Sequence record: PP418986.1
Origin: Escherichia phage UPWr_E2
Strand: one strand, 5' to 3'
DNA: 64,000 nt
A program made the translations under genes and the position numbers. The notes under the pieces were generated by a model. That model saw only the letters and a list, made by a program, of their open reading frames with translations, was not told where the DNA came from and searched no databases. Position 1 is the stretch's first letter, and every line of letters starts with the position of its first letter. Positions 1 through 64,000 of this stretch are shown piece after piece.

Positions 1-735
1 AAGATCGACGGCAGTTACAAACCCTTGATTGGTGATTACACTTCTTCCTTTGAGAATCGGATAATAACAATCCTGTGAAACATAACCATGATCGACGAAT
101 ATTGGTGCTTCTACTCGCCATTGGTTGCCCCAATCACCCGGTTGTCTAGCAATCCATCCAGAACCGTTAATGTGTACACGATCGCGGTTAACGTTAACCA
201 TTGCGATATTTTGTGGATTTAGCGAAATCTCACCATTGTTTGTGATATGTACTGCCGCCTGAGTAGCATAGCTATAAAATGCTAGCGAATTATCAGCACC
301 ACCCTTACCAATATACCAGTTACCACTCCCGTCTACGTCACCACGAATATGCAAAGCATTACCAGCAGTTGTTGATAATACAATAGAATCACCCGGACGT
401 TTAATAATCAATCTACCTTCGGATTCAATTTCACCAAAAAATTTAGTCTTAATTGCACCAGTCGCTAAAGTACGTTCAGTGGAAAAATGAACGCCTTTGC
501 TGTCTTCTAACTGAATAATGTTATCGCGCGCATTATTACTATCACCCCAATGATTAAACCGGAAATAATCACGTGATTGCTTACCACCCGCTTCAAACGT
601 CAGCGTACCTTTACTTAAATTAACATCACCGCTAAAGGTAGCAGCAAGAGAATCACGTTCTAATTTTAAAACGTTAGCACCACTAGTACCACCTAAAGTA
701 ACATCACCAGTTCTCAATTCATAACGGAAAGGTCT
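1..735 (-). CDS. 37: long tail fibre distal subunit gp37, C-terminal coding portion (partial; runs off window start; out of frame with the upstream gp37 ORF because of the 349-bp duplication)
   Basis: minus-strand frame open 735->1 with no stop; re-reads the repeat unit then ...RPGDSIVLSTTAGNALHIRGDVDGSGNWYIGKG...; no ATG inside the repeat unit. Confidence 0.5.
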
Positions 736-1084
736 AATCACCCGGACGTTTAATAATCAATCTACCTTCGGATTCAATTTCACCAAAAAATTTAGTCTTA
801 ATTGCACCAGTCGCTAAAGTACGTTCAGTGGAAAAATGAACGCCTTTGCTGTCTTCTAACTGAATAATGTTATCGCGCGCATTATTACTATCACCCCAAT
901 GATTAAACCGGAAATAATCACGTGATTGCTTACCACCCGCTTCAAACGTCAGCGTACCTTTACTTAAATTAACATCACCGCTAAAGGTAGCAGCAAGAGA
1001 ATCACGTTCTAATTTTAAAACGTTAGCACCACTAGTACCACCTAAAGTAACATCACCAGTTCTCAATTCATAACGGAAAGGTCT
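387..1084. repeat. perfect tandem direct duplication, 2 x 349 bp (387-735 and 736-1084)
   Basis: units identical at every position compared; flanking bases differ (386 vs 735; 737 vs 1086). Confidence 0.95.
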
Positions 1085-2833
1085 ATTTGTATTATAGTTT
1101 CCATTTTGATCATCTTCGTTGGTGGAAAGAATATAAAGATTCTCTCCATAAGTACGGAAAATTGTACCAAAATTTCCGGCATACATACGGAATGCATTAG
1201 ATGAGCGAAATTTAACTTCTGTTTTAAAAGTGGTAGTGTTATTAAGGTTAACAGTAGAGTTAAAATTGGTAGGAGCACCGAAGTTAACAGCACCATTAAA
1301 ATCTTGTTGAGCTGTCCATGTGTGGCAACCATCTTCAAGAACAACACGGCGGACTGTGCAAGTTCTATTTCCAGAATTACCGAACACACTAACGACAAAA
1401 TAACGGTAGTTTGTCTGGGATACAGTACCACGCCAAACCTGAACAGTACGTCCTGTGCTAGTGTGCTCGCTAGGACCAACAGAAAACATAATTAAGTTTC
1501 CGTCAATCGTACCCCAATCCATATTAGCTGGCATGTTCTTTATTTTGTTCAAAGGAACGCTAAACATACTACCAGGAACAAAATCAAATGTTTGCCAGTC
1601 TAACTCTGCTAAGTTAGATTTAATACCACCCATACCCAAAGTAATTGGAAGAGAGTAAGATGTATATACTTCGTTCCATGTACCCCAAACACCGCCGGTA
1701 TATGCACGCTCAAAAATACGATCGCGGGTAGTTGCACCTGTTCCGGCAGTAGTAAATTTTTGGAAAATAGCACCACCAGAAGCACGCTGTTTAACTTCCA
1801 GCAAACCAACAATAACGGTTGGTAAACCTTCACCTGTAGGACAGTTAATAACGGCATCAGTGCCTAAAATGTTATATAACCCAGGAGCTTTAAAATCATT
1901 CAGGTCTCCGTCATAGAAAGTCGCCGGTGTGACATTACCGACTTGTTGCCACGGTCCCCATTTAGGCGCAGATGCATCCCATGCAGCAGCAAGACAGCGA
2001 GTATAAACAACACCAAATCTGGTCGTATATCTCTGTGTGCGAGAATAGTTTCCACCTTCATATACTTCTAAAAGTCCTTGAGCTGACAATCCTTCTTCTG
2101 GGAAATTTCTGTCAAAGGTAGCAATGGAATTTGAACCATTTCGCCACAAACCAAGGTGTTCAGCGCCTCCTAGATCATTAAGATCAATCGTTGTTGACAG
2201 TGGACGAGTACCAGATTGAATATTTCGCCACGCACTCCACGGACCGTTTACTCCGTTCCATGTAGCAGTCAAGGAACGAATATAAACATTTCCGTATCTA
2301 GTTGTATATCTCTGAGTACCAGCAAATTGACCGGCCACAAATACTTCTAGAACACCTACAGCATTTTCTTCTGGAAATTTATTTGCTGGTTGAGCGTTGG
2401 TTGAAGTTGTTTTCGACCAAACTCCAAGATATTCTTCAACAGGCCCATACTCATCTAAATTAGCATCAACAGGTAATTCGCCGTTATTTTTTATAAACGT
2501 TGTGCTATTGACATTTATGTCAGATGGAGTTAGCGTGATATCTTTTGACCCATCAAAGGATATACCATTAATTTTTCGTGCTGTTTTTAATTTCGTTGCA
2601 GTTGCAGCGTTACCTGTTAAATTTCCAATTATGTTTCCATTAACAGTTAAAGAACCATCAATTGTTCCTCCATATTTTAAACCTAATTCTATAACACTAC
2701 CTGAGTCATCTTTTGTGAAAATTGTTTTATCTTTTAAGTTTATAGCCAATTCACCTTCGGCTAATACTGAAGCAGCAGGACGTTGACCTGCAGTTTTGCT
2801 TCTTTTAAATTGTATTTGTTTTAAAGTAGCCAT
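734..2833 (-). CDS. 37: long tail fibre distal subunit gp37, N-terminal ORF (699 aa, ends at a TAG formed at the duplication junction)
   Basis: N-terminus [13 protein letters not shown] typical of T-even gp37; directly downstream of gene 36; body differs from my memory of T4 gp37. Confidence 0.85.
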
Positions 2834-2841
2834 AAGTCCTC

Positions 2842-3492
2842 TTAATAATAGCCGAAATCTTGAACAGAATCCTTAATTACGATTTGGTCAAATCGTGGAA
2901 CGTGTGAAGGTTGAGATGCAGGATTCTGTGAAAAAAGGTTTGGCGCAGTTAAATTTCCTGTCATAGTGTCTCCAGAGCGTAATACCCTAGAGTTTGCATT
3001 TGCTGTAACAGTATTTATTGCTCCATCAACATAATCTTTACGAGTAACATCAGATGCTGCGGAAGGAGTAGATGTAACAGTTACAGATGGAGCCGTTACA
3101 GCTTTGGTAAATGTTGTCAAACCTTCTGGCGTAATCGTAATTTGTCCAGTAGTGATTTCACTACCTGCTGGTCTAAAACTAATACCGCCAGAAGAGCCAC
3201 CAACTACAAGAGTATTACCAGTGCCGCCACCAGAACGAATTCGGATGGGGGTTTCATTATTACTTAATTGAAGATAACTATTTACCCCGTAATTAATAGT
3301 AATTGGACCGGTGTAAGTACCACCATTAGCTTTAGAAACGAAATCGTTATCAGCTGCCTGCGGTTTATTATATTCTGAATATATTTTAAATGATTTGTAG
3401 AGTACATCGTCACCGGCTGAATTCAATGGAAAATTTCCTTGATGCCAAATGACAGATCCACCCACAGTTGAACCTACTTTTAAATCAGCCAT
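2842..3492 (-). CDS. 36: long tail fibre distal connector gp36
   Basis: 216 aa; N- and C-terminal thirds match my memory of T4 gp36 (MADLKVGST..., ...[17 protein letters not shown]); synteny. Confidence 0.9.
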
Positions 3493-3515
3493 TATATGCC
3501 CCTTTATTTTAATAT

Positions 3516-3523
3516 TATTTATA
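3516..3523 (-). promoter_or_regulatory. late promoter box TATAAATA (minus strand) for gene 36
   Basis: plus-strand tatttata 24 nt upstream of gene 36 start codon. Confidence 0.6.
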
Positions 3524-3552
3524 AAGAAAAAGGGAACCCGAAGGCTCCCTCA
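3524..3552 (-). terminator. stem-loop plus U-run after gene 35
   Basis: minus-strand agggagcc-ttcg-ggttccct followed by tttttcttt; stem pairs fully only as minus-strand RNA (G-U). Confidence 0.55.
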
Positions 3553-3554
3553 GT

Positions 3555-4670
3555 TTAAACTTCTCTAAATTCCTGTCCAAACACTTTGCCAGTTTTAGAA
3601 GAGGCTTGTGTAGGAAGTACCATTATATCTGGAGGTGAAGCCGATTCACAGACATAATTAACGCGAATACCGTTGACGCCAAATTCGGCAGGTTTTGAAA
3701 TGCCGCCATTTCTTGATACTTCAGAAAAACTTAAATTTCTCATGCCGCCTTGACCTGCTTGAGCAGTTCTTTGTGCATATATCGTAAATCCTACTGCATT
3801 TTCAGGAACAACTACATAATCTTCTTTTAATTCCCAAGACCCAGCTTGCCCAGTAAACTCAGCTTGGGTCGAGGAAATATATCCATTTGATGCATCATAA
3901 AAACGAATAGATATATTTGTAGTTCCAAGATCAAGTAAATCAGCATCAGCATATAGTTGTGCTTTAAGATAAAGAACATCACCAGGAATTAAATTGTAGT
4001 CAGAAAGTTTACTTATAGCAGCTGAAGTTGGCAATCGCGCAATTTCATTATTAGTTCCTCCAACCGCAGACATAAATTGCTCAACGCTTTCGTATGTTCT
4101 TTTAGGAAATCCTGTAGCTCCGACGTCTTCTAAACTATCAAATACAACATCTAAAATAGTTTGATAATCATCTGTGCTTTTTCTATTACTTAGTTTAACA
4201 TGCTCTAATGCAATAACTCTTTTAGAAGAAGTATAAAAAGCAGCATATGACACGTCAAATCTTGACAATACTGAATCTGATGGAAAAACTGAAGTTCCTG
4301 CTCCCCTTAACCAAGATACCACTTCAGGAGGAAAATTAACCTTTCCGCTAGTTAATATAGCAACAAGTCTATTGTTTGACAAAGAATTCATGAAACTGAC
4401 AAAAGCGGCAGATGTTGTATCGTTTGAAGCAGAAAAAGCATATGACTTGCTATCAACTAATGCTCCCGTAGAAGGGTCAAAAACTCTTAAATGAAGACCT
4501 GCACTAAATGTTTGATTTCCAACGGGATTATCCTGAAATTTAACATATGGCCCCGCAGTAGAAAGCGGGCAAGAACCCGCTATGCTTATTTTATATCTTA
4601 CTGAATTGCTTTCCGATAAAAATGGCGTTTGGACATATCCTTGTCCAAACTCTGCCATAAATTTTTCCAT
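3555..4670 (-). CDS. 35: long tail fibre hinge connector gp35
   Basis: 371 aa; MEKFMAEFGQGYVQTPFLSESNSVRYKISIAG... matches T4 gp35 from memory. Confidence 0.9.
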   Translation of the reverse strand: MEKFMAEFGQGYVQTPFLSESNSVRYKISIAGSCPLSTAGPYVKFQDNPVGNQTFSAGLHLRVFDPSTGALVDSKSYAFSASNDTTSAAFVSFMNSLSNNRLVAILTSGKVNFPPEVVSWLRGAGTSVFPSDSVLSRFDVSYAAFYTSSKRVIALEHVKLSNRKSTDDYQTILDVVFDSLEDVGATGFPKRTYESVEQFMSAVGGTNNEIARLPTSAAISKLSDYNLIPGDVLYLKAQLYADADLLDLGTTNISIRFYDASNGYISSTQAEFTGQAGSWELKEDYVVVPENAVGFTIYAQRTAQAGQGGMRNLSFSEVSRNGGISKPAEFGVNGIRVNYVCESASPPDIMVLPTQASSKTGKVFGQEFREV

Positions 4671-4678
4671 AATACCTC

Positions 4679-7600
4679 TTATTCAATCCACTCAAATTTA
4701 ACAGTTTTATTCACTGGGTCAGGAATAATGCGAACATTACCAATTCGCAAGAAATCGCGAATAGTAAGATTACCTATTATTCCATTATCAGATGGGATCG
4801 CTCCTATATCTGAAGGTTGAGGAGGGTTACCTCCGTCAAATACCTGAACAAAACTTGACCAAGAGTTTTTGGTTTTCTGCCATGTACGTGTCCAGCGAGT
4901 GGTACGTGCTTCTGGGGTCGTTGGATAAGTAATCCAATCTTGGTAAAGTGAATCAAGTGTGTTACCAAACTGAGTCAATGTACCAGGAGATTTAACTTCT
5001 TCACCACGTTCTAAGTATGGAAGTCCAGTCACTTCATTAGTTTTTTCAACCATTTTAAAATAACCCGGGAACTGGTTATAAGTGGCTGAATCATTAATAT
5101 CGATTGACCAGAATCCTACTGTATCAGATGTTGGCGCACGGGTATATAAATCAGAGGTTTTAGTACCCTGAGAACGAATTCTCGAGTTAACAGTCAAACC
5201 ACCCGAACTTATAGTAGCACCTTTTGCAATGATTAAGCTTTCACCAATCGTTACTTGGCCAGATGCATTATTAATAGCTAAAGGACGCAATCCATTAAAT
5301 CCGCCAGTTTGATCACCCGATGCAGTAAGCATAAAATTCGTTACTGACCCGTCATTGCGAACAATGAAACCATAATTTCCGCTAATAGCACGGAAAGCAT
5401 TTGCGCTTCGAGAAATAATTTCACCAGTTGCAGTGACTGAATTACCAAATGTTGCTACACCATTTGCATTCAATGTTCCTGAAGCATTAACATTTATCGG
5501 TGTTACTGTACCGTTGATATTAAATGTTATATTTCCAGCTTTATTACGCTGAGAATAAAAATGACTAGACGTTTCATCACTAACTTCAAATACGGTAGAA
5601 CGTGTTGTGTCTGATTCCCCACTAAACTGATTTCCCCACACTCTGACTGTCATCGTTTGAGCTGGGTTTGTTCCAGTTTGAGGTCCTTTCTCAAAAATCA
5701 GACGAGTTGCCGTTCCAGTATTAGAAATAGTTAATGTACTATTTGCTGAAACTGATCCACCGAATGTAGCAGTACTAGATGATACAAGAGGGGCACTCAG
5801 ATTCGTTTGTTGGGTTAAGGTTAGTGAACCATTAACTGTTTGTGCAATGTCCCTACGAATGAACTGGAGCGAATCTAGACCATCTAATAAATTACTATCT
5901 ACAGCTTTTGCTTTTAATGGCAAATAATTTGCTAATACGCGATTTAATTCATATGGTGATACTGCATAACCATTTTTCTCATATGATTCTAATGGCTGTG
6001 TTGAACCTACCGTATCATTACCAACAAACGTTAATGAACCAGAAGAAGTTTTAACAAACCCTCTTATCAGAGTAGTTGCTGCCCAAGTTGGTTCACTCTG
6101 CACAATCCATTTTAAATTTTTTGGAGATACAGCAGTATTTGCTGACGTTCCAGTCACAGTTTCAGACTGAGTTGCAACTTTAATAACACCTTCTTGCGAT
6201 TCGGTAGATTTAGTACCTAAAAGCTTTTTAGGAGTTATTAAAACATTATCTAATGTTCCTGCAGCAGCTTCAACTTGTGTAGCTACACGAAGTGTACCAC
6301 GCTGTGTCTCATTTGCTTCAAGAATATTAAGGGTATAATGGTCCCAGAGAGTTCCTGATTCAACTAATCCAGATAGAGCAACAACAGAAGTACGATCAGT
6401 ACTATTAAATCTGGTTTTAATTTTTAATGGTGTAGAGATACGAGTATCGTCGACGCCTGCGTCGAATTCAACCTGTGTAGCAATTTCAGCTATACCACTT
6501 AAACTTTCAGTTGCTCTACGGTCATTTAAAGTTTTAGGAGTGACTGCACGAGTATAGTCAGTTCCTGTATTAACTTCACTTTGCGTAGCAATTTCAATTA
6601 AACCAATTCTTCCATCAGTTGATGTCTTTTTATGTAACGTTTCTGGCGTTACAACCGCATTTGCCCATCCTTCTTGGCTTTGTCCAGCAATTACTTCACT
6701 TTCAACTGCTAAAATTACTGCGCCTTGTTGCGTTGGAGTAGCTTTATACTGATCCAAAGCTTTAGGTGAAACAACTAAATTATTAGTGTTTTTATTATAA
6801 ACATTCGTACCATTTAATTCACGACTAGAAGCTGGAGTAGCTCCTGCGGTAGATACAAAAGTTACAATACCCGATAATGTTTCAGAACCTTGACGAGCTT
6901 GAAGCTTTTTAGGAGTGATGATTGTAGTATCATCAGTACCTGTATTAGTTTCCTGCTGCGTAGCAATTTCAGCGACACCTCTGCGAGTTTCTGTAGCAGT
7001 TCTTTCATTCAGCTTTTTAGGAGTGATGATAAGGTCATCTGCAAAAGAGAATGTGGTGTTCTGATTCACTTGAGCAGTAGTTGCTATTCTTGCAATACCT
7101 CTGCGAGTTTCTGTAGCAGTACGATTAGCTAACGTTTCTGGAGTAATTGCCAATTCTTTTTGCGGAGAATTTTCTAAATCAGCATTTGCTTGAGCTTGTG
7201 TAGCTAAAGCAATTACGCCTAATCTTGCTCTAGTAGAATTATTTAAAGAATCGACTCTTTCAACTGTTGGAACGTTTTGCTGTACAACCCAGTATTTTCC
7301 ATCAGAATCTTCTATATAAGCAAGTTGCAAAACTGGTACATAATTAGTTTCACCATTAAAAACTAATTCTTGAACTGTTACCCATTCAGCTTCAGGCGGA
7401 TATTCTGAACGTTTTGGGAATTGCAGCAATTGAACTGAAGAAGCAATTTTATCTTCACCGGCAGCTTTGATTTTAACTGTTTGTCCTTTTCTCATGTAAT
7501 TCATGGAAATTTTAACAGTATCACCAACAGAAATATCAGTCGGAAGCTGAAGTTCAATTGTTTGGGTTGTTCCATTATTCGCGCCAAATACCATGACTTC

Positions 7601-8548
7601 TTCATTTGGACGAATATTTGAATTAGTTGTTATAATGCGTAAACGTGCTTTACTATCCCCGTCAAACAATCTCCACAATTTCTCATTATCGTCAAACATC
7701 AAGAAACCGTCAATCGATGTACGGCCTTCAATGGAATGAGTTCCAACTTCTTGTACTGAAGTCGTTTCATCGTATGTAGTAACAATTGTATGATAAAGTG
7801 GATTCAGTTTATCTAAATCAACGAAATTAATAATATCGCCATGATTAGCAAATCTCGGAAGTTTAACATTAATTGGTGCAGCAGAAGTAAATCTACGTAC
7901 GATAAAATCATTAGATTGTGCTTGATATGCAGTCGATGGAGTAACAATCGCAGCTTCTCTGCTATAATCAGCAATATACATTTGCCACAAACGATTATTA
8001 AAAATGAATACCATCTGTGACTTTGGATGAGTCATTAAAACTGAACGTACCTGTTCACCTCTAAAATTGACAATACTCTGATTTGAAGAATTTATTTTAA
8101 CCTGATTTATGCCAGGTTTTCCACCGATATCTTGAATTATTACGGTTTCTCCATCAAGCGGAGAAGGTGGTAAAGTAAACTCAATGTCATTGCCAACTGA
8201 TGTATCTACTGAAATTGCTTCTCCGGATTTTAATTGATATGGTCCAGATGATACGGTTGTATATACGGCATCAGTACGTAATGCTTTCCAACGAATTCTA
8301 TTAAAATTTCCAGCAGGTTTTGGAATATTATCCGTTGCTGCCCAAAAACGATTATTATAAATGATTACAAAATCTTTTAAATATCCACGAGTTGGGTCAT
8401 ATTGCTGAACTGTGTTTTCTTGAATTAAGTAATCAACGTTAACACCGTCAGTTCCTACGGTACGATCAGCTAAAGCTACGTTGATTATTTTATCGCCACC
8501 TGCGTCCAGACCATCTTCTGCTCTGAACTTTCTTTTAATCTCGGCCAT
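4679..8548 (-). CDS. 34: long tail fibre proximal subunit gp34
   Basis: 1289 aa, same length as T4 gp34; synteny upstream of 35-36-37. Confidence 0.92.
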   Translation of the reverse strand: MAEIKRKFRAEDGLDAGGDKIINVALADRTVGTDGVNVDYLIQENTVQQYDPTRGYLKDFVIIYNNRFWAATDNIPKPAGNFNRIRWKALRTDAVYTTVSSGPYQLKSGEAISVDTSVGNDIEFTLPPSPLDGETVIIQDIGGKPGINQVKINSSNQSIVNFRGEQVRSVLMTHPKSQMVFIFNNRLWQMYIADYSREAAIVTPSTAYQAQSNDFIVRRFTSAAPINVKLPRFANHGDIINFVDLDKLNPLYHTIVTTYDETTSVQEVGTHSIEGRTSIDGFLMFDDNEKLWRLFDGDSKARLRIITTNSNIRPNEEVMVFGANNGTTQTIELQLPTDISVGDTVKISMNYMRKGQTVKIKAAGEDKIASSVQLLQFPKRSEYPPEAEWVTVQELVFNGETNYVPVLQLAYIEDSDGKYWVVQQNVPTVERVDSLNNSTRARLGVIALATQAQANADLENSPQKELAITPETLANRTATETRRGIARIATTAQVNQNTTFSFADDLIITPKKLNERTATETRRGVAEIATQQETNTGTDDTTIITPKKLQARQGSETLSGIVTFVSTAGATPASSRELNGTNVYNKNTNNLVVSPKALDQYKATPTQQGAVILAVESEVIAGQSQEGWANAVVTPETLHKKTSTDGRIGLIEIATQSEVNTGTDYTRAVTPKTLNDRRATESLSGIAEIATQVEFDAGVDDTRISTPLKIKTRFNSTDRTSVVALSGLVESGTLWDHYTLNILEANETQRGTLRVATQVEAAAGTLDNVLITPKKLLGTKSTESQEGVIKVATQSETVTGTSANTAVSPKNLKWIVQSEPTWAATTLIRGFVKTSSGSLTFVGNDTVGSTQPLESYEKNGYAVSPYELNRVLANYLPLKAKAVDSNLLDGLDSLQFIRRDIAQTVNGSLTLTQQTNLSAPLVSSSTATFGGSVSANSTLTISNTGTATRLIFEKGPQTGTNPAQTMTVRVWGNQFSGESDTTRSTVFEVSDETSSHFYSQRNKAGNITFNINGTVTPINVNASGTLNANGVATFGNSVTATGEIISRSANAFRAISGNYGFIVRNDGSVTNFMLTASGDQTGGFNGLRPLAINNASGQVTIGESLIIAKGATISSGGLTVNSRIRSQGTKTSDLYTRAPTSDTVGFWSIDINDSATYNQFPGYFKMVEKTNEVTGLPYLERGEEVKSPGTLTQFGNTLDSLYQDWITYPTTPEARTTRWTRTWQKTKNSWSSFVQVFDGGNPPQPSDIGAIPSDNGIIGNLTIRDFLRIGNVRIIPDPVNKTVKFEWIE

Positions 8549-8582
8549 TCTCCCGGGCTCCTATTGTGTTTTCAATAATAAG

Positions 8583-8590
8583 TATTTATA
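8583..8590 (-). promoter_or_regulatory. late promoter box TATAAATA (minus strand) for gene 34
   Basis: plus-strand tatttata 35 nt upstream of gene 34 ATG. Confidence 0.6.
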
Positions 8591-8593
8591 CCT

Positions 8594-8623
8594 GTTTACT
8601 TTAAGATTTAGATAGTATATAAT
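8594..8623 (+). promoter_or_regulatory. sigma70-type early promoter for rnh
   Basis: -35 gtttac (8594-8599), 18-nt spacer, -10 tataat (8618-8623). Confidence 0.5.
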
Positions 8624-8652
8624 AGAAATCTCACTAATTGAACGAGGTTCAT

Positions 8653-9570
8653 ATGGATTTAGAAATGATGCTGGATGAAGATTACAAAGAAGGAATTTGC
8701 TTTATTGACTTTAGTCAAATTGCTCTTTCAACTGCTCTGGTAAACTTCCCAGATAAAGAAAAAATTAATTTATCAATGGTTCGTCATTTGATATTGAACT
8801 CAATTAAGTTTAATGTCAAAAAAGCAAAAACGCTTGGATACACTAAAATTGTGCTGTGTATTGATAACGCGAAATCTGGATACTGGCGTCGTGATTTTGC
8901 TTATTATTATAAGAAAAACCGTGGAAAAGCACGAGAAGAATCTACTTGGGACTGGGAAGGTTATTTTGAATCCAGCCATAAAGTTATAGATGAATTGAAA
9001 GCTTATATGCCATACATTGTTATGGATATTGATAAGTATGAAGCAGATGACCATATTGCTGTTCTTGTTAAAAAGTTCTCTTTAGAAGGACACAAGATTT
9101 TAATCATTTCGTCGGATGGTGACTTTACACAGCTTCACAAATATCCAAATGTTAAGCAATGGTCACCGATGCATAAGAAATGGGTTAAAATTAAAAGCGG
9201 TTCTGCTGAAATTGACTGTATGACTAAAATCCTTAAAGGCGACAAAAAGGATAACGTTGCTTCAGTTAAAGTACGATCTGACTTTTGGTTTACCAGAGTT
9301 GAAGGTGAACGAACTCCTTCAATGAAAACTTCAATCGTTGAAGCTATTGCTAATGACCGTGAGCAAGCTAAGGTGCTTCTCTCAGAATCTGAGTATAATC
9401 GTTATAAAGAAAATTTAGTTCTAATTGATTTTGATTATATTCCTGATAATATTGCTTCAAACATTGTGAATTACTATAATTCATATAAATTACCACCGCG
9501 TGGCAAAATTTATTCATATTTTGTAAAAGCGGGTCTTTCTAAATTAACTAATAGCATTAATGAATTTTGA
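8653..9570 (+). CDS. rnh: RNase H (5'-3' exonuclease/flap endonuclease)
   Basis: 305 aa from ATG 8653 (SD gagg 7 nt upstream); MDLEMMLDEDYKEG... matches T4 RNase H; the 8638 start in the ORF track is TTG. Confidence 0.9.
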   Translation: MDLEMMLDEDYKEGICFIDFSQIALSTALVNFPDKEKINLSMVRHLILNSIKFNVKKAKTLGYTKIVLCIDNAKSGYWRRDFAYYYKKNRGKAREESTWDWEGYFESSHKVIDELKAYMPYIVMDIDKYEADDHIAVLVKKFSLEGHKILIISSDGDFTQLHKYPNVKQWSPMHKKWVKIKSGSAEIDCMTKILKGDKKDNVASVKVRSDFWFTRVEGERTPSMKTSIVEAIANDREQAKVLLSESEYNRYKENLVLIDFDYIPDNIASNIVNYYNSYKLPPRGKIYSYFVKAGLSKLTNSINEF

Positions 9571-9578
9571 GGTGAATA

Positions 9579-9848
9579 ATGGCTAAAAAAGAAATGGTTG
9601 AATTTGATGAAGCTATCCATGGCGAAGACTTGGCTAAATTTATTAAAGAAGCATCTGATCATAAACTGAAAATTTCCGGTTATAATGAATTGATTAAAGA
9701 TATTCGAATTCGTGCCAAAGATGAACTTGGCGTTGATGGTAAGATGTTTAATCGTCTATTAGCTTTGTATCATAAAGATAACCGTGATGTGTTTGAAGCT
9801 GAAACTGAAGAGGTAGTTGAACTTTATGACACAGTTTTCTCTAAATGA
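9579..9848 (+). CDS. dsbA: dsDNA-binding protein DsbA (late transcription accessory)
   Basis: 89 aa, position between rnh and 33 as in T4. Confidence 0.85.
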   Translation: MAKKEMVEFDEAIHGEDLAKFIKEASDHKLKISGYNELIKDIRIRAKDELGVDGKMFNRLLALYHKDNRDVFEAETEEVVELYDTVFSK

Positions 9849-10164
9849 CATTCGTCCGGTCGATGAGACCGGTCTTTCAGAAAAAGAACTTTCAATCAAG
9901 AAAGAAAAGGATGAAATAGCAAAGCTTCTTGATCGTCAAGAAAATGGATTTATTATTGAAAAAATGGTAGAAGAGTTTGGAATGAGTTATCTTGAAGCTA
10001 CAACAGCATTCTTAGAAGAAAACTCTATTCCTGAAACTCAATTTGCTAAATTTATTCCTTCGGGTATAATTGAAAAAATTCAGTCAGAAGCCATTGACGA
10101 AAATCTTTTACGTCCTTCTGTTGTTCGTTGTGAAAAAACTAATACATTAGATTTTCTGCTATGA
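9826..10164 (+). CDS. 33: late transcription co-activator gp33
   Basis: 112 aa from ATG 9826 (MTQFSLNDIRP...), SD gagg upstream; overlaps dsbA 3' end. Confidence 0.85.
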   Translation: MTQFSLNDIRPVDETGLSEKELSIKKEKDEIAKLLDRQENGFIIEKMVEEFGMSYLEATTAFLEENSIPETQFAKFIPSGIIEKIQSEAIDENLLRPSVVRCEKTNTLDFLL

Positions 10165-10814
10165 TTAAACTCCGCATGCCTGCTGGTGGTGAAAGATACA
10201 TTGATGGTAAATCAGTTTATAAATTATACTTAATGATAAAACAACATATGAATGGAAAGTATGATGTTATTAAGTATAATTGGTGCATGCGGGTGTCTGA
10301 TGCCGCTTATCAAAAGCGAAGGGATAAGTATTTTTTCCAGAAGTTATCAGAAAAATATAAATTAAAGGAACTTGCTTTAATCTTTATAAGCAATCTTGTT
10401 GCTAACCAGGATGCTTGGATTGGCGACATCTCTGACGCTGATGCACTTGTGTTTTATCGTGAATATATCGGACGCTTAAAGCAAATTAAATTTAAGTTTG
10501 AAGAAGATATTCGCAACATTTATTATTTTAGTAAGAAAGTTGAAGTTTCTGCTTTTAAAGAAATCTTTGAGTATAATCCAAAAGTTCAATCAAGTTATAT
10601 TTTTAAACTACTTCAATCGAATATAATTTCGTTTGAAACGTTTATCTTGCTTGATTCGTTTTTAAATATAATTGATAAACACGATGAACAGACTGATAAT
10701 TTAGTCTGGAATAATTATTCTATAAAGTTAAAGGCTTATAGAAAAATTTTAAATATTGATTCACAGAAAGCTAAAAATGTTTTCATTGAAACTGTGAAAT
10801 CTTGCAAGTATTGA
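10161..10814 (+). CDS. 59: helicase loader gp59
   Basis: 217 aa, T4 gp59 length and position. Confidence 0.88.
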   Translation: MIKLRMPAGGERYIDGKSVYKLYLMIKQHMNGKYDVIKYNWCMRVSDAAYQKRRDKYFFQKLSEKYKLKELALIFISNLVANQDAWIGDISDADALVFYREYIGRLKQIKFKFEEDIRNIYYFSKKVEVSAFKEIFEYNPKVQSSYIFKLLQSNIISFETFILLDSFLNIIDKHDEQTDNLVWNNYSIKLKAYRKILNIDSQKAKNVFIETVKSCKY

Positions 10815-10815
10815 T

Positions 10816-11448
10816 ATGAATATAGTATATTGGTTTACATTTGAAGACCGTGTCAAAAATAAGACTCCGCCATACTATTATATCGGTAGTAAATTAAATT
10901 GCTCATTTGAGAACGGAATAATATATGACTCTTCCGGAAAGGAATACTGGAGCTCATGTAAACAAAAAAGATTTTTGAATGCGCTAATGCTTCAAAAACC
11001 GAGCGTTAAAATAATTCAAATTGATGATGACTTGGATGTTATTGAAGCAGAACGAAAATACCAACTTGAAGTAAATGCCAGAGATAATCCAGACTATTTT
11101 AATCTGGTATATGCTGGTGGTGGATTTGGTGTGAGTGGTGAAACTCATCCAGCCAAAGACCCGGAAGTTAGAGAGCATATGAGATTGGCTAATTATATGA
11201 ACCGTGACGATTTTAGACCTTGGAAAACATCACGAGCTAATATAGAGTCTTGGAAATTATCTCATATTGCTTACGAGAATTATGTGTTATTATTATCCTC
11301 TAATCTGTACGGTAAAACTCCTGGATGGCGAAGAGTTAAAGGTAATATAAATATAACTGATACAACTGCTAAATCGATGGTAAAGTATTTCAACTCAGGT
11401 TGGATACCTCTCGAAGACCCAGAGTATTGCGAATTATGCCAGCTATGA
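10816..11448 (+). CDS. segG: free-standing GIY-YIG homing endonuclease, SegG-like
   Basis: 210 aa; N-terminal IVYWFTF...YYYIGSK GIY-YIG motif; sits between 59 and 32 where T4 segG lies. Confidence 0.75.
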   Translation: MNIVYWFTFEDRVKNKTPPYYYIGSKLNCSFENGIIYDSSGKEYWSSCKQKRFLNALMLQKPSVKIIQIDDDLDVIEAERKYQLEVNARDNPDYFNLVYAGGGFGVSGETHPAKDPEVREHMRLANYMNRDDFRPWKTSRANIESWKLSHIAYENYVLLLSSNLYGKTPGWRRVKGNINITDTTAKSMVKYFNSGWIPLEDPEYCELCQL

Positions 11449-29236: not shown

Positions 29237-29560
29237 ATGAAAACGATTAATCTGAACGCTGCAGTTAAAACTAAATGCTTCAATGGTAAATATGATGAAA
29301 CTATGTGGTTCTTAATGGCAGTTGAAGGTGATATTATTGAAGTAGAAACAACAGAAGGTATGGGAACAGATTTCACCTTTACAATTCAAGTTCATAATTT
29401 CTTTACTGGTTGGATTTATGAATTGAATACAGTAATCGTTGGAAAAATTGAACAAAATGAATTAGGTGAATGGTATTATGTTACAGCTCGCCAACGTGCC
29501 GAACGCTTAATTGAGAAGATGAAAAAGTTGGTAAACTTGACATGCAGCATTGGAAAGTAG
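29237..29560 (+). CDS. hypothetical protein (107 aa)
   Basis: SD aaggag upstream. Confidence 0.55.
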   Translation: MKTINLNAAVKTKCFNGKYDETMWFLMAVEGDIIEVETTEGMGTDFTFTIQVHNFFTGWIYELNTVIVGKIEQNELGEWYYVTARQRAERLIEKMKKLVNLTCSIGK

Positions 29561-49255: not shown

Positions 49256-50673
49256 ATGGCTTTTACAGTTGATATAACTCCTAAAACACCGACAGGGGTT
49301 ATTGATGAAACTAAGCAGTTTACTGCTACACCCAGTGGTGAAACTGGAGGCGGAACTATTACATATGCTTGGACTGTAGATGATGCTCCACAAGATGGAG
49401 CTGAAGCAACTTTTGATTATGTATTAAAAGGACCTGCTGGACAAAAGACTATTAAAGTAGTTGCAACAAATACAGTTCCAGATACTGATGCTGAAACAGC
49501 AGAAGCTACTACAACTATCACAGTTCAAAATAAGACACAAACGACCACCTTAGCTGTAACTCCTAATAGCCCTGACGCTGGAGTAATTGGAACAGCTGTT
49601 CAATTTACTGCTGCCTTAGATTCGCAGCCACCAGGCGCATCGGCTACGTATCAATGGTACGTTGACGGTTCTCCTGCGGGCGAAGCAACTTCTGCTACAT
49701 TCAATTACACTCCTGACACAAGCGGAGTTAAAAAATCAAGTGTGTAGCTCAAGTAACCGCGACAGATTATGATACAAAGGAAGTTACTTCGAATGAAGTA
49801 TCACTGACTGTTAATAAAAAGGAGCAGACAACTACTTTGGCAGTAACTCCTGATAGTCCTCCAGCGGGAGTAATCGGAACCCCAGTTCAATTTACTGCTG
49901 CCTTAGCTTCTCAACCTGATGGAGCGTCTGCTACGTATCAGTGGTATGTAGATGATTCACAAGTTGGTGGAGAAACTAACTCTACATTTAGCTATACTCC
50001 AACTACAAGTGGAGTAAAAAGAATTAAATGCGTAGCCCAAGTAACTGCTGAAAATTACAATGAAAAGGAAGTTACTTCTAATGAAGTATCATTGACAGTT
50101 AATAAGAAGACAATGAATCCACAGGTTACATTGACTCCTCCTTCTATTAATGTTCAGCAAGATGCTTCGGCTACATTTACGGCTAATGTTACGGGTGCTC
50201 CAGAAGAAGCACAAATTACTTACTCATGGAAGAAAGATTCTTCTCCTGTAGAAGGGTCAACTAACGTATATACTGTCGATACCTCATCTGTTGGAAGTCA
50301 AACTATTGAAGTTACTGCTGTCGTTACTGCAACTGATTACGATAGCAAAACTATTACAGCAGAAGGTCAAGTTCAGGTAACTGATAAAGTTGCTCCAGAA
50401 CCAGAAGGTGAACTACCTTATGTTCATCCTCTTCCACATCGTACTTCAGCTTATATCTGGTGCGGTTGGTGGGTTATGGATGAAATCCAAAAAATGACCG
50501 AAGAAGGTAAAGATTGGAAAACTGACGACCCAGATAGTAAATATTACCTACATCGTTACACTCTTCAGAAGATGATGAAAGACTATCCAGAAGTTGATGT
50601 TCAAGAATCGCGTAATGGATACATCATTCATAAAACTGCTTTAGAAACTGGTATCATCTATACCTATCCATAA
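49256..50673 (+). CDS. hoc: Hoc outer capsid decoration protein, interrupted by a -1 frameshift in an A6 run (49730-49735); four Ig-like domains
   Basis: ORF 49256-49747 and ORF 49837-50673 together read as Hoc if one A is added to the run; C-terminal ...YVHPLPHRTSAYIWCGWWVMDEIQK... matches T4 Hoc. Confidence 0.8.
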
Positions 50674-59651: not shown

Positions 59652-61631
59652 TTAACCAGCAAGACCAGTTAACTCATCGAAATCTGCACCAGTAGCAGTT
59701 GCTACGAAGTTCAAGGTAATGTAGTTAATGCTTCTAGCCGGTTGAATGTAGAATGTTGCAACAAACTCATTTCTATCAATTACTGACGGAGTGTTATTTG
59801 TTGTATCGCAAACTACACGATATTCATAAATTCCACCGAGAGCTTTAATTCCCTGTAAGTATTGGGCAGTTTCTGTGCGGAATGATGAACGAGTAAACGC
59901 GTTGTTTAATTCGAACAAACGATATTTTGAACTACGTCCGATATTCGTTTTCAACATATTAAACAGACGACGAACGTTAATACGATCAAATGGAGAAGGA
60001 ACAGAAGTAGCTGTTTTATCACCATACAATACGTAACCATCACCACCTGTACCAGTTACTGGGTTGATAGCTTCTTGATATAAACGGTCGCGCTGAGCTT
60101 GGCGAGTTTCAATAGCAAGTTTAATAACGTTAAGAATCTGACCACGATTATAACCAGCTGGAGACATCCAAGTCTGAGAAACGTTATCAGTTCTCGCGCA
60201 TAAACCAGCAATGTCAGCTGCTAATGGAACCCAACGATTTACATCATTATATTTGTCATACTGATATTTGTAGTTACCATCAATTGCTGCGTAGGTTGAA
60301 CTAATATTAAAGTTATTATCAGTATATGAACCTGCCGCAGTTCTCCAGTTAACTAAATTATCTACTGCACGAGTTACAGGAATTCCAACAACAGTTTCAC
60401 GCGGTGGTGAGCACAATACTAAGCAATCTTGGCGAGCATCTCCAATTGAAACGACGTGTTTTTGGACAGTAGATGCTGTTTCTAAAGATTCACCGGCACA
60501 AGAACCCGCAATAAACAACTGAACGTCAACAGATTCGCGGTCAGCAAAGAAGTCCCAAGCTTCCATCAAATCTCCTGCTGTTACTTCAGCATTTGATGAT
60601 AATCCACCAGACAGAGTTAAAATTCCAGAGAAGCCTTCTGGCCAGTTTTGCGCAGTTGCGAAAATATATTCTGAACCACCTTTTGCGAAAAAGTCATCAA
60701 TATAGATGTTACTATCGTAAATATCTTTTTCACCACGCTTAGTTGAAAGAACAACGCTTTGAACAATAGCATCATTTCGACGAACTATAATAGCGTACTG
60801 TGAGTCAGTCTGCGGCCCATATCCAAATACTGCCTTGGCAGTAGATGCACGAGTACCACCACCTGGATAAATTGGCAGTAATGCAGAAGCGCCTTTCGCA
60901 TAGTCAGCTTTAGATACGATTTCAATTTCAATTTTATCGCCTAATTCGCCTGGATAGAGAGCTACTACTCCTGGAATTCCATATTTTTCAAGATTTGCCT
61001 GAAAATCAACTGCTGTCATAGCAGTTTCAGCGCTCTCGATTTCAGCTAATAAAATACCGGAATCAGTAATAATTTTTCCAAGAGTTATTACTGCAGCTAA
61101 ACCGGAAGAAGATGAAGAAATTTCTGCAGTCCAGTTAGAACCTAATGTTGGGTATTCGCCAACTTCTTTAGCTTTAGCAATAATTTTTGCAGTAGGAATA
61201 TTAATTTTCTTAATTTTTCCATCAGCATCTACTTCGGTAATTTTACCTTCTGTTTCAACATCTTCTGAAACATATTTGACCGTGATTTTATCTCCAACCG
61301 CGTAGTTACTACCTGGGGTAGAAATTGTGTATTCAATATTACCAGCAATCGGAGATGAGTTTTTAGCGGTATCTCTATCGACAGCGCGCACAACTCGCAA
61401 ATCATTTCCATATTGTAAGAAATTCATTACAGACATAAAATAGTCAGCAGTTTCAGCTGTAGGTTGACCAAAAGTATTAACTAAATCTACTTCGTTTGTA
61501 ACCTGTTTAATCTGAAAAGCAGGACCCCACTGGAATTTACCGGCCAAAGCTGCTGTACCAGTAGAGTTATTAACCACGGTGCTTTGAACCGTAGTTTCTT
61601 TGAGCTCAATGCCCGGAGATAATAAAGTCAT
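59652..61631 (-). CDS. 18: tail sheath protein gp18
   Basis: 659 aa, T4 gp18 length. Confidence 0.95.
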   Translation of the reverse strand: MTLLSPGIELKETTVQSTVVNNSTGTAALAGKFQWGPAFQIKQVTNEVDLVNTFGQPTAETADYFMSVMNFLQYGNDLRVVRAVDRDTAKNSSPIAGNIEYTISTPGSNYAVGDKITVKYVSEDVETEGKITEVDADGKIKKINIPTAKIIAKAKEVGEYPTLGSNWTAEISSSSSGLAAVITLGKIITDSGILLAEIESAETAMTAVDFQANLEKYGIPGVVALYPGELGDKIEIEIVSKADYAKGASALLPIYPGGGTRASTAKAVFGYGPQTDSQYAIIVRRNDAIVQSVVLSTKRGEKDIYDSNIYIDDFFAKGGSEYIFATAQNWPEGFSGILTLSGGLSSNAEVTAGDLMEAWDFFADRESVDVQLFIAGSCAGESLETASTVQKHVVSIGDARQDCLVLCSPPRETVVGIPVTRAVDNLVNWRTAAGSYTDNNFNISSTYAAIDGNYKYQYDKYNDVNRWVPLAADIAGLCARTDNVSQTWMSPAGYNRGQILNVIKLAIETRQAQRDRLYQEAINPVTGTGGDGYVLYGDKTATSVPSPFDRINVRRLFNMLKTNIGRSSKYRLFELNNAFTRSSFRTETAQYLQGIKALGGIYEYRVVCDTTNNTPSVIDRNEFVATFYIQPARSINYITLNFVATATGADFDELTGLAG

Positions 61632-61660
61632 TTTTAATCCTCTTTAATATGCTTTAATAT

Positions 61661-64000
<2,340 letters not shown>

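Follow-up and report, generated by a model that had tools for sequence, protein, structure and literature searches.

A question raised by the distal long-tail-fiber genes of Escherichia phage UPWr_E2 (PP418986.1) is whether genes 36 and 37 have been built from exchanged modules relative to T4, and whether the 699-aa gp37 recorded there is a complete protein. The stretch of DNA analyzed, here called the window, covers 64,000 nucleotides (Table 1). With good confidence, the region can be described as the T6-type genes 36 and 37 of a Tequatrovirus that hardly differs from PYps55T, a Yersinia phage (MT515756; Front Microbiol 2022, PMC8762354), with gene 37 as recorded broken by a duplication.

Table 1. 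Features of the gene 36 and gene 37 region, in window coordinates
Feature	Position	Strand	Basis
T4-type late promoter box TATAAATA	3516..3523	-	23 nt upstream of gene 36 ATG
GC-rich hairpin GGGAGCC-TTCG-GGTTCCC followed by T-run, putative terminator-like element	3533..3549	-	Just after gene 35 stop; read from sequence, function presumed
Gene 36 (gp36, 216 aa), distal connector of long tail fiber, T6 allele	2842..3492	-	ORF, Pfam, phrog, T6 identity
gp36 N-terminal module, codons 1-60, conserved; putative gp35-joining end	3313..3492	-	93-100% identity among T4, T2, T6 and window
gp36 central module, codons 61-148, of T6 type and exchanged with respect to T4 and T2	3049..3312	-	Module identities, DNA identity profile
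gp36 C-terminal module, codons 149-216 and stop, conserved; putative gp37-joining end	2842..3048	-	98-100% identity among T4, T2, T6 and window
Gene 37 ORF as recorded, 699 aa, N-terminal 70% of T6-type gp37	734..2833	-	Ends at artifactual stop (probable)
First ~50 codons of gp37, conserved in T4 and T2 (putative joint with gp36)	2684..2833	-	44/50 residues identical to T4
Three tandem ~95-aa repeats, codons 113-404, T6-type gp37 interior	1622..2497	-	Segments aligned with MAFFT
Gp34_trimer-like domain of gp37, codons 522-587	1073..1270	-	Pfam PF21446 at 1.9e-10
Duplication copy translated first, gp37 codons 584-700	736..1084	-	TRF, repeat search
Second duplication copy, out of frame (+1) relative to upstream ORF	387..735	-	TRF, repeat search
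TAG stop across duplication junction, T from first copy and AG from second	734..736	-	Sequence
True gp37 frame after junction, open to window start	1..732	-	Translation without stops

The minus-strand ORFs follow the order 34-35-36-37, and gene 36 lies between genes 35 and 37. Its product matches the Pfam family Phage_T4_gp36 (PF03903) over residues 140-190, at 29.4 bits against a cutoff of 26, and a profile search matched it to phrog_1425 at 1e-51. By BLASTP, gp36 has an overall identity of 66% to T4 gp36, a value which taken alone would speak for uniform divergence of gp36 and gp37 from T4 with no exchange of modules. Such a history is virtually untenable given how the identity is distributed: residues 1-60 and 149-216 are ~97% identical to T4, and those between them ~26%. 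Counted by alignment columns, the flanks (residues 1-60 and the C-terminal ~64-68) are identical to T4 at 121/124 and the middle (roughly residues 61-150, ~88-92 aa) at 26/99, which sets flanks of 97-99% against a center of 26% (Fisher exact p=2e-32). A similar drop is seen in gp37, where 44/50 of the first residues are identical to T4 and thereafter 205/1129 columns (p=4e-25), corresponding to 88% identity up to residue 50 and ~18% beyond it. BLASTP aligns gp37 residues 1-66 to T4 at 79% and to T2 at 76% identity; past this N-terminal section it finds a single weak patch of likeness to T4 gp37 (27%, residues 454-601) and leaves the T4 tip unmatched.

At the DNA level, identity to T4 in 60-nt windows stays at 0.88-0.97 down to position ~3329, falls to 0.37-0.45 over 3328-3089, is 0.62 over 3088-3029, returns to 0.90-0.98 over 3028-2729 and drops to random level below ~2700. 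These step changes indicate that the module boundaries are sharp and that divergence is not uniform. The segments unlike T4 are instead close to T6, at 99% identity for the gp36 center (26% for T4 and 21% for T2) and 87% for gp37. The original prediction had described gp36 as T4-like at both ends with a differing center, and gp37 as T4-like in its first ~50 aa only; both descriptions are borne out by the column counts, and for gp37 also by the BLASTP alignment of residues 1-66, while the uniform divergence that would speak against mosaicism is found in neither the alignment nor the DNA profile. Recombinational exchange of modules, as proposed there, is likewise supported by the sharp breakpoints and by the near-identity of the replaced segments to T6, and recombination is the presumed cause of the mosaic pattern.

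In comparison to phage T6 (AP018814), identity reaches 99.1% for gp34, 97.6% for gp35 and 98.6% for gp36, and gp37 is colinear with T6 gp37 at 87% over 995 aa when PYps55T gp37 is used as the full-length query. Judged by sequence, genes 36 and 37 are ordinary T6-type alleles of the long tail fiber, mosaic relative to T4. The suggestion that gp37 follows a different lineage thus holds in that it differs from T4, but not in the sense of novelty; as the lineage is the T6 type, there is nothing new in this locus, and mosaic loci of this type have been known for decades. Cassette exchange among T-even tail-fiber genes, and the dichotomy between a gp37 tip in T4 and a gp38 adhesin in T2/T6, are long-established textbook knowledge, and the biological import of a plain T6-type allele is small. 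Gene order and sizes agree with T6 (216 aa for gp36 in both; for gp37, 994 aa in T6 and 995 aa in PYps55T), whereas the window differs from it by lower DNA identity at the second gp37 repeat (~2009-2308, 0.65-0.80) and in patches near 929-988 and 160-279, by five private gp37 substitutions and by the duplication. With T4 (NC_000866), the window has in common the fiber architecture, gp34 (91%), gp35 (96%), both gp36 ends and the first ~50 gp37 residues; the gp36 center differs, and the remainder of gp37 is unrelated save for a weak Gp34_trimer-like patch.

The three tandem repeats in the gp37 interior have the common motif DLN..G.W..FPE..G.LEV..Q.(Y/F)TT..R..W..W, and phrog_4618, annotated as ‘tail collar fiber protein’, spans residues 117-325 at 1.5e-40. 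Pfam at E<=5 returned no match for the repeat region or the gp37 N-terminus, and a single-sequence AlphaFold2 model of residues 105-410 was unusable (mean pLDDT 34, pTM 0.26). The Gp34_trimer-like region also matches gp34 fragments of PDB entries 5nxf/4uxe at 1e-7.

The last ~167 codons of gp37, together with gene 38, fall outside the window, and the end of the fiber is seen in the sibling PYps55T. Over 63,240 nt the two sequences are separated by 56 SNPs and two 1-nt gaps (99.9% identity), and they share the T6-type fiber locus with the order 34-35-36-37-38-t. PYps55T differs in having a single 349-bp segment and an intact 995-aa gp37, as well as in five gp37 residues, 44 SNPs clustered in the terminase genes and the lengths of two A-runs, one of them in hoc. 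Its gp37 has a Peptidase_S74 domain at residues 883-941 (E=4.8e-11), the corresponding region of which lies beyond the window start. Gene 37 is followed in PYps55T by a 269-aa protein with the Pfam domains GP38 (PF05268, 1.6e-65) and Gp38_N (PF21721, 1.5e-19), which matches the solved S16 gp38 adhesin 6f45_D at 3e-49 and has no similarity to the T4 gp38 chaperone by BLASTP; the next gene encodes a holin. By analogy to this sibling, in which alone they are seen, a gp38 adhesin and an S74 domain are predicted for the genome from which the window comes. The earlier guess that specificity may be conferred by a separate adhesin encoded beyond the window start gains support in the same way, through near-identical PYps55T.

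Based on PYps55T, the tip would resemble that of Salmonella phage S16 (PDB 6F45), where a gp37 trimer is capped by a polyglycine-rich adhesin, and C-terminal residues 876-980 of gp37 match 6f45_A at 6e-4; the sequence similarity is, however, distant and the part concerned falls outside the window. In T4, by contrast, gp37 itself carries the receptor-binding tip (structure 2XGF) and gp38 is a chaperone, unrelated to the gp38 adhesin encoded by PYps55T. The PYps55T gp38 is only 68.6% identical to that of T6, and the receptor therefore need not be Tsx.

Taken as a model, the fiber would be built as in T-even phages from gp34, gp35, gp36 and gp37, with the T4-conserved gp36 N-terminus, gp36 C-terminus and first ~50 gp37 residues serving as the likely gp35-gp36 and gp36-gp37 joints. 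The free shaft segments between these joints have probably been exchanged as cassettes, through recombination in the flanks that are conserved. A gp37 of ~995 aa would then run from the N-terminal joint through three ~95-aa repeats and two kinds of shaft domain, Gp34_trimer-like and gp37_trimer-like, to a Peptidase_S74 domain acting as intramolecular chaperone at the C-terminus. The latter would be cleaved off and the tip then capped by the separate glycine-rich gp38 adhesin, which would bind the outer-membrane receptor, in the mode of T2/T6 and not that of T4. Cleavage of gp37 and capping by gp38 in T6 and T2, along with recombination at conserved motifs, have been described by Trojet et al. 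(2011, PMC3157838).

The recorded gene 37 does not fit a protein of this length. Its 699-aa ORF is uninterrupted from ATG to stop and is preceded by a good Shine-Dalgarno sequence, as would be expected of a natural, complete short gp37 with a separate gene downstream, and the original prediction had treated it as complete. It is very unlikely to be so, as positions 387-1085 are a perfect tandem duplication (period 349, 2.0 copies, 100% matches by TRF and a repeat search), the sole tandem repeat of large size across the 64 kb, and the last 116 codons of the ORF recur base for base right after the stop in another frame. Of the 1000 positions in the phrog_1699 profile, moreover, the ORF matches just 1-686, and gene 37 is uninterrupted in 58 of the 60 best relatives, all 58 encoding about 989-995 aa. 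No ATG or Shine-Dalgarno sequence was found for an independent start of the downstream gp37 frame, which leaves a separate gene there with no plausible start.

The alignment to PYps55T shows how the frame was lost. Positions 1-736 are 100% identical to PYps55T 4001-4736, and 736-7600 align to PYps55T 4387-11251; the overlap of these alignments indicates that one 349-nt unit is present twice in the window. As 349 = 3x116+1, the perfect duplication of codons 584-700 shifts the frame by +1 and places a TAG exactly at the junction, which reads GGAAAGGTCT followed directly by AATCACCCGG, leaving the 699-aa ORF. Positions 1-386 are unique sequence that reaches gp37 residue 828, and when one copy is removed, gp37 residues 1-828 are read with no stops at 99.4% identity to PYps55T gp37. 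An uninterrupted gp37 frame of ~990 codons is thus absent here, broken at codon 700 by the duplication, where intact versions in relatives are 994-995 aa; the break is judged to be a defect of the record or assembly and not a property of this family member.

Two routes by which the downstream part might be expressed were rejected. Independent expression of the fragment would have to start at GTG or TTG codons lacking a ribosome-binding site. Programmed +1 frameshifting at GAT-TAG-A was dismissed by inspection, as the P-site codon is not slippery (Asp GAU cannot re-pair on AUU) and nothing resembling a Shine-Dalgarno stimulator lies upstream.

The duplication probably originated as an overlap left untrimmed on joining or rotating a circularly permuted assembly, in which case the real phage would have an intact gene 37. 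It displays the hallmark of an end-overlap artifact in having exactly two copies that are 100% identical and missing from close relatives. Judged by established T4 biology, a truncated distal half-fiber without a gp38-binding tip should be lethal, and this argues for an origin in the assembly, as does the junction microhomology of just 1 nt. A comparable case in the same gene lends further weight: in relative G3G7, gene 37 contains a perfect, frameshifting 127-bp duplication at another place, and G3G7 exceeds its sibling records in length by 125-127 bp. Like the documented artificial 127-bp SPAdes end overlaps (PMC5923482), the present duplication is a perfect two-copy repeat, absent in all relatives, that disrupts an essential gene; unlike them it is 349 bp long, which matches no standard assembler k-mer and runs counter to such an origin. 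The iScience 2024 phage-collection paper, in which comment on G3G7 was sought, does not cover that phage. Of the three gene 37 duplications observed, two are out of frame, which is what an absence of selection would give and likewise supports an artifact. The occurrence of three independent duplications within a single 3-kb gene might also reflect a biological hot spot, an observation that would count against an assembly error. Elsewhere in the window, two A-runs are each 1 nt short; these deletions are unique to the window, one of them breaks hoc, and they hint at imperfect assembly.

Less likely by a wide distance, though worth weighing, is a genuine recent mutation of the phage in a lineage with strong host-range selection on its gp37, either as a defective or minority variant caught by the assembler or as an in-frame 348/351-bp duplication, lengthening the shaft, that was mis-recorded by one base. 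Five private non-synonymous gp37 substitutions (A142T, S233G, S249L, R482S and R503C), unique among 8 relatives and clustered at 20 times the background density (Poisson P=1.5e-5), show real recent change in gp37 of this lineage, making a real structural mutation somewhat less implausible. Favoring it as well are an in-frame, perfect 153-bp gene 37 duplication in relative UPWr_E4, which keeps a 1045-aa ORF, the position of the duplicated codons 584-700 almost exactly between shaft domains 522-587 and 703-757, and the 1-nt homopolymer discrepancies elsewhere in the window. For T4 gene 37, duplications that alter host range are on record (Tetart 1996, as cited in PMC3157838); from that type, which is in frame and flanked by conserved repeat motifs, the duplication here differs in being 349 nt, out of frame and of 1-nt microhomology. 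As recorded, moreover, it truncates an essential protein, the downstream part has no start codon or Shine-Dalgarno sequence for its expression, and a 1-nt microhomology is not what exchange between repeated motifs would leave. Each copy is 100% identical to the other and also to the one present in PYps55T, and an indel error within either is thereby excluded. Megablast of the junction against 50,697 phage records gave no match, nor did scans of IMG/VR, metagenome contigs and genome contigs; the sole IMG/VR contig with the 349-bp repeat unit, 49.5 kb in length, has one copy, and exact look-ups of the 699-aa product and of the truncated Hoc product returned no record. The absence of the junction shows that the junction is unique, and fits an artifact or a private mutation alike. 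That the duplication is real and, with the five private changes, records ongoing tail-fiber remodeling in a T6-type phage is more doubtful still; this could take the form of an unstable duplication intermediate within a mixed population, or of an in-frame shaft extension mis-recorded by one base. If both the duplication and the substitutions were real, host-range selection would have the gp37 shaft of such a gp38-capped fiber as a target, and not gp38 alone, which would be modestly interesting.

With an assembly overlap as the preferred origin, the practical value of the observation lies in quality control, as gene 37 would be annotated here as a truncated 699-aa protein owing to the duplication. 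At least two deposited relatives carry similar perfect duplications in gene 37, and such duplications, if unrecognized, would mislead receptor-binding-protein prediction, host-range modeling and fiber engineering.

Upstream of gene 36, a late promoter is common to T4 and the window; the window contains 17 such boxes where 8.2 would be expected.

The tail fibre locus lies at window positions 1-8548 on the minus strand, where four ORFs represent T4 genes 34, 35, 36 and 37, and ORF calls on this strand showed that the bounds originally given for genes 36 and 37 are those of real ORFs. The gap between genes 35 and 36 holds a GC-rich hairpin with a T-run and a T4 late-promoter box TATAAATA (3516-3523), and 9 nt separate the end of gene 36 from the start of gene 37, which is preceded by a GAGG ribosome-binding site. 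This octamer is found in 17 copies in the whole window against 8.2 expected from shuffles; besides the copy upstream of gene 36, one lies upstream of gene 34 (8583-8590). Residues 58-112 of gp35 match the Pfam family ILEI (interleukin-like EMT inducer) at E=8e-8, which clears the gathering score; a family of this name would not be expected for a protein of the fibre hinge.

Positions of the fibre genes, of the segments in the DNA identity profile against T4, and of domains in gp37 of the sibling Yersinia phage PYps55T
Feature	Position	Strand	Description
Gene 34	4679-8548	minus	1289-aa ORF; gp34 91% identical to T4
Gene 35	3555-4670	minus	371-aa ORF; gp35 96% identical to T4
Gene 36	2842-3492	minus	216-aa ORF; counterpart of T4 gene 36
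Gene 37 ORF as recorded	734-2833	minus	699-aa ORF; counterpart of T4 gene 37
DNA identity to T4	down to ~3329		0.88-0.97
DNA identity to T4	3328-3089		0.37-0.45
DNA identity to T4	3088-3029		0.62
DNA identity to T4	3028-2729		0.90-0.98
DNA identity to T4	below ~2700		random level
Gp34_trimer-like domain	PYps55T gp37 residues 522-587		
gp37_trimer	PYps55T gp37 residues 703-757		weak match
Peptidase_S74 intramolecular chaperone	PYps55T gp37 residues 883-941		C-terminal

The original prediction that genes 36 and 37 are mosaic relative to T4, with conserved ends and a replaced interior, is confirmed. Overall, gp36 is 66% identical to T4 gp36, but strongly unevenly along its length: the flanks (residues 1-60 and the C-terminal ~64-68) are identical in 121/124 alignment columns and the middle (roughly residues 61-150) in 26/99 (Fisher exact p=2e-32). 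Of the first 50 residues of gp37, 44 are identical to T4, against 205/1129 columns afterwards, which is background level (p=4e-25), and BLASTP aligns only residues 1-66 at 79% and one weak 27% patch. When DNA identity was profiled in 60-nt steps, conserved and replaced segments alternated with sharp borders, the conserved ones being the N-terminus of gp36, its C-terminus and the N-terminus of gp37; uniform divergence of the two proteins from T4 is not seen, as identity changes in steps.

Comparison with T2 and T6 settles the lineage that the interior follows as that of T6. Identity to phage T6 (AP018814) is 99.1% for gp34, 97.6% for gp35 and 98.6% for gp36 (216 aa in both), while gp37 is 87% identical and colinear along the whole 994/995 aa; to T2, gp36 is 64% identical and gp37 is similar at the ends only. 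As the central module of gp36 is 99% identical to T6 versus 26% to T4 and 21% to T2, the fibre locus is, judging by sequence, of the T6 type, and this type of gene 37 is present over at least 80% of its length in at least 149 phage records. The mosaic is thus real but already known; both the mosaic structure of genes 36 and 37 and the dichotomy between T4 and T2/T6 adhesins are long established, and the locus is simply the T6 allele of the familiar T-even fibre genes.

The T4 fibre is ordered from proximal to distal as gp34-gp35-gp36-gp37, and from this order the conserved segments would form the gp35-gp36 and gp36-gp37 joints. Such joints would be kept compatible with conserved partners and may also supply the homology at which recombination swaps the shaft cassettes in between; recombination in or near conserved motifs of T2/T6 fibre genes has been described (Trojet et al. 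2011, PMC3157838). In gp37, the replaced interior opens with a GNAATATKL... motif, followed at codons 113-404 by three ~95-aa repeats with a common motif that match phrog_4618 'tail collar fiber protein'; no Pfam match was found for the repeat region, and a single-sequence AlphaFold2 model of it gave a pLDDT of 34. Residues 105-534 (window ~1230-2520) are 55% identical (tblastn) to the tail-fibre protein of VB-YPM-18 (ON146440), a much smaller, non-T4-like Yersinia pestis phage of 31.8 kb whose fibre has the repeat module in common with gp37; the module therefore circulates beyond T4-like phages.

The one point worth recording is a matter of data quality: perfect tandem duplications, probably assembly artefacts, disrupt gene 37 in this sequence and in two or more deposited relatives. 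Window positions 387-1085 hold a tandem repeat of period 349 (2.0 copies, 100% identity), the sole large tandem repeat in the 64 kb, whose unit corresponds to gp37 codons 584-700. As 349 is 3x116+1, the second copy is read in +1 phase, and a TAG at 734-736 spans the junction, with the T from the first copy and the AG from the second. Thereafter the true gp37 frame picks up in another phase and is open to window position 1; removing one copy yields 828 open codons whose product is 99.4% identical to gp37 of PYps55T (MT515756, Tequatrovirus ecombl75), a near-twin from which the window is separated by 56 SNPs and two 1-nt gaps across 63,240 nt. The 699-aa ORF, taken originally as the whole of gp37, is ruled out as a complete gene by the duplication, the junction TAG and the continuing frame, and covers only positions 1-686 of the 1000-position profile phrog_1699. 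No ATG or ribosome-binding site was found for separate expression of the downstream part.

No other sequence was found to share the 349-bp duplication: a single copy is present in PYps55T and in the other close-relative records listed, the junction is absent among the phage-collection matches listed, every one of which splits into two pieces, and no exact junction match was found in IMG/VR, metagenome contigs or genome contigs. Gene 37 is uninterrupted in 58 of the 60 best relatives, the exceptions being vB_EcoM-G3G7 and UPWr_E4. The former (MZ234040, 5747-6002) has a perfect 127-bp duplication elsewhere in gene 37, which is annotated as two CDSs because the duplication is out of frame; the record exceeds those of sibling phages by 125-127 bp, and SPAdes contigs are documented to carry an artificial 127-bp overlap at their ends (PMC5923482). 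In UPWr_E4 (PP418987, 5153-5459), a perfect 153-bp in-frame duplication gives a gp37 of 1045 aa. With its duplication deleted, each of the three genes encodes a clean gp37 of 994/995 aa, microhomology at all three junctions is 1-2 nt only, and two of the three duplications are out of frame, as expected without selection.

Given this uniqueness, the two cases in relatives, an expected lethality and hints of an imperfect consensus, we consider it quite likely that the 349-bp duplication is an untrimmed overlap from joining a circularly permuted assembly or two contigs. In T4 biology, gp37 without its distal 30% and gp38-binding tip should give no infectious T-even particle, so such a lesion at consensus level in a propagated phage is unlikely. 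Two private 1-nt deletions in A-runs relative to PYps55T further hint at an imperfect consensus. At 49729 (ORF 49256-49747, plus strand), A6 versus A7 frameshifts a Hoc-like head-decoration gene, whose product has 163 aa versus 473 aa in PYps55T; the extra base is present in all relatives listed, and the deletion may be real, giving a hoc-null variant, or else a sequencing error in the homopolymer. At 29521, A5 versus A6 alters the C-terminus of a small plus-strand ORF (117 vs 120 codons, stop to stop).

A real structural mutation in gene 37, against which the expected lethality speaks, appears improbable; however, standard k-mer lengths do not include 349, which counts against an artefact, and gp37 carries five private substitutions relative to PYps55T (R503C, R482S, S249L, S233G and A142T at window 1327, 1390, 2088, 2137 and 2410). 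All are non-synonymous and private to the window among eight relatives, T6 included, and four affect positions that are otherwise invariant. The density of the five exceeds the genomic background ~20-fold (Poisson P=1.5e-5); the 5/5 non-synonymous ratio is not significant by itself (P=0.27). This clustering suggests that gene 37 is truly changing in the lineage, leaving room for a real duplication; its cause could be selection for host range acting on the gp37 shaft, or errors in the consensus. That a genuine duplication and the substitutions together mark ongoing remodelling of the shaft is more doubtful still, and would be moderately interesting if true.

The original suggestion that a separate adhesin is encoded past the start of the window is supported, though only through PYps55T, the window cutting gp37 off at residue 828. 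In that phage, gene 37 (995 aa) is followed by a gp38 gene and then a holin gene. Its 269-aa gp38 matches Pfam GP38 (1.6e-65) and Gp38_N, as well as the structures of the S16 adhesin (6f45_D, 3e-49) and 9v85 (4e-71); it shows no similarity to the gp38 chaperone of T4. In the T2/T6 mode, the C-terminus of gp37 is removed proteolytically and a gp38 adhesin caps the tip, the N-terminal subtype of gp38 being paired with the C-terminal subtype of gp37 (Trojet et al. 2011, PMC3157838). By its predicted products, the arrangement in PYps55T is of this mode, with receptor recognition expected in gp38. As this gp38 is only 68.6% identical to that of T6, the receptor may differ from Tsx; Tsx-type adhesins also recognising Yersinia OmpA have been described (Trojet et al. 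2011, PMC3157838), and Y. pseudotuberculosis is a host of the PYps phages (PMC8762354).

The HP3 record (NC_041919) has its origin within gene 38, and the IMG/VR contig IMGVR_UViG_3300010279_000008 ends within gene 37, near window ~276; these are anecdotal hints that assemblies of such phages tend to break at genes 37/38. Elsewhere, 44 of the 56 SNPs relative to PYps55T fall within ~2.8 kb of the terminase genes (gp16/gp17, 61130-63920), the other 60 kb holding 12, and this cluster resembles a patch acquired by recombination from another Tequatrovirus.
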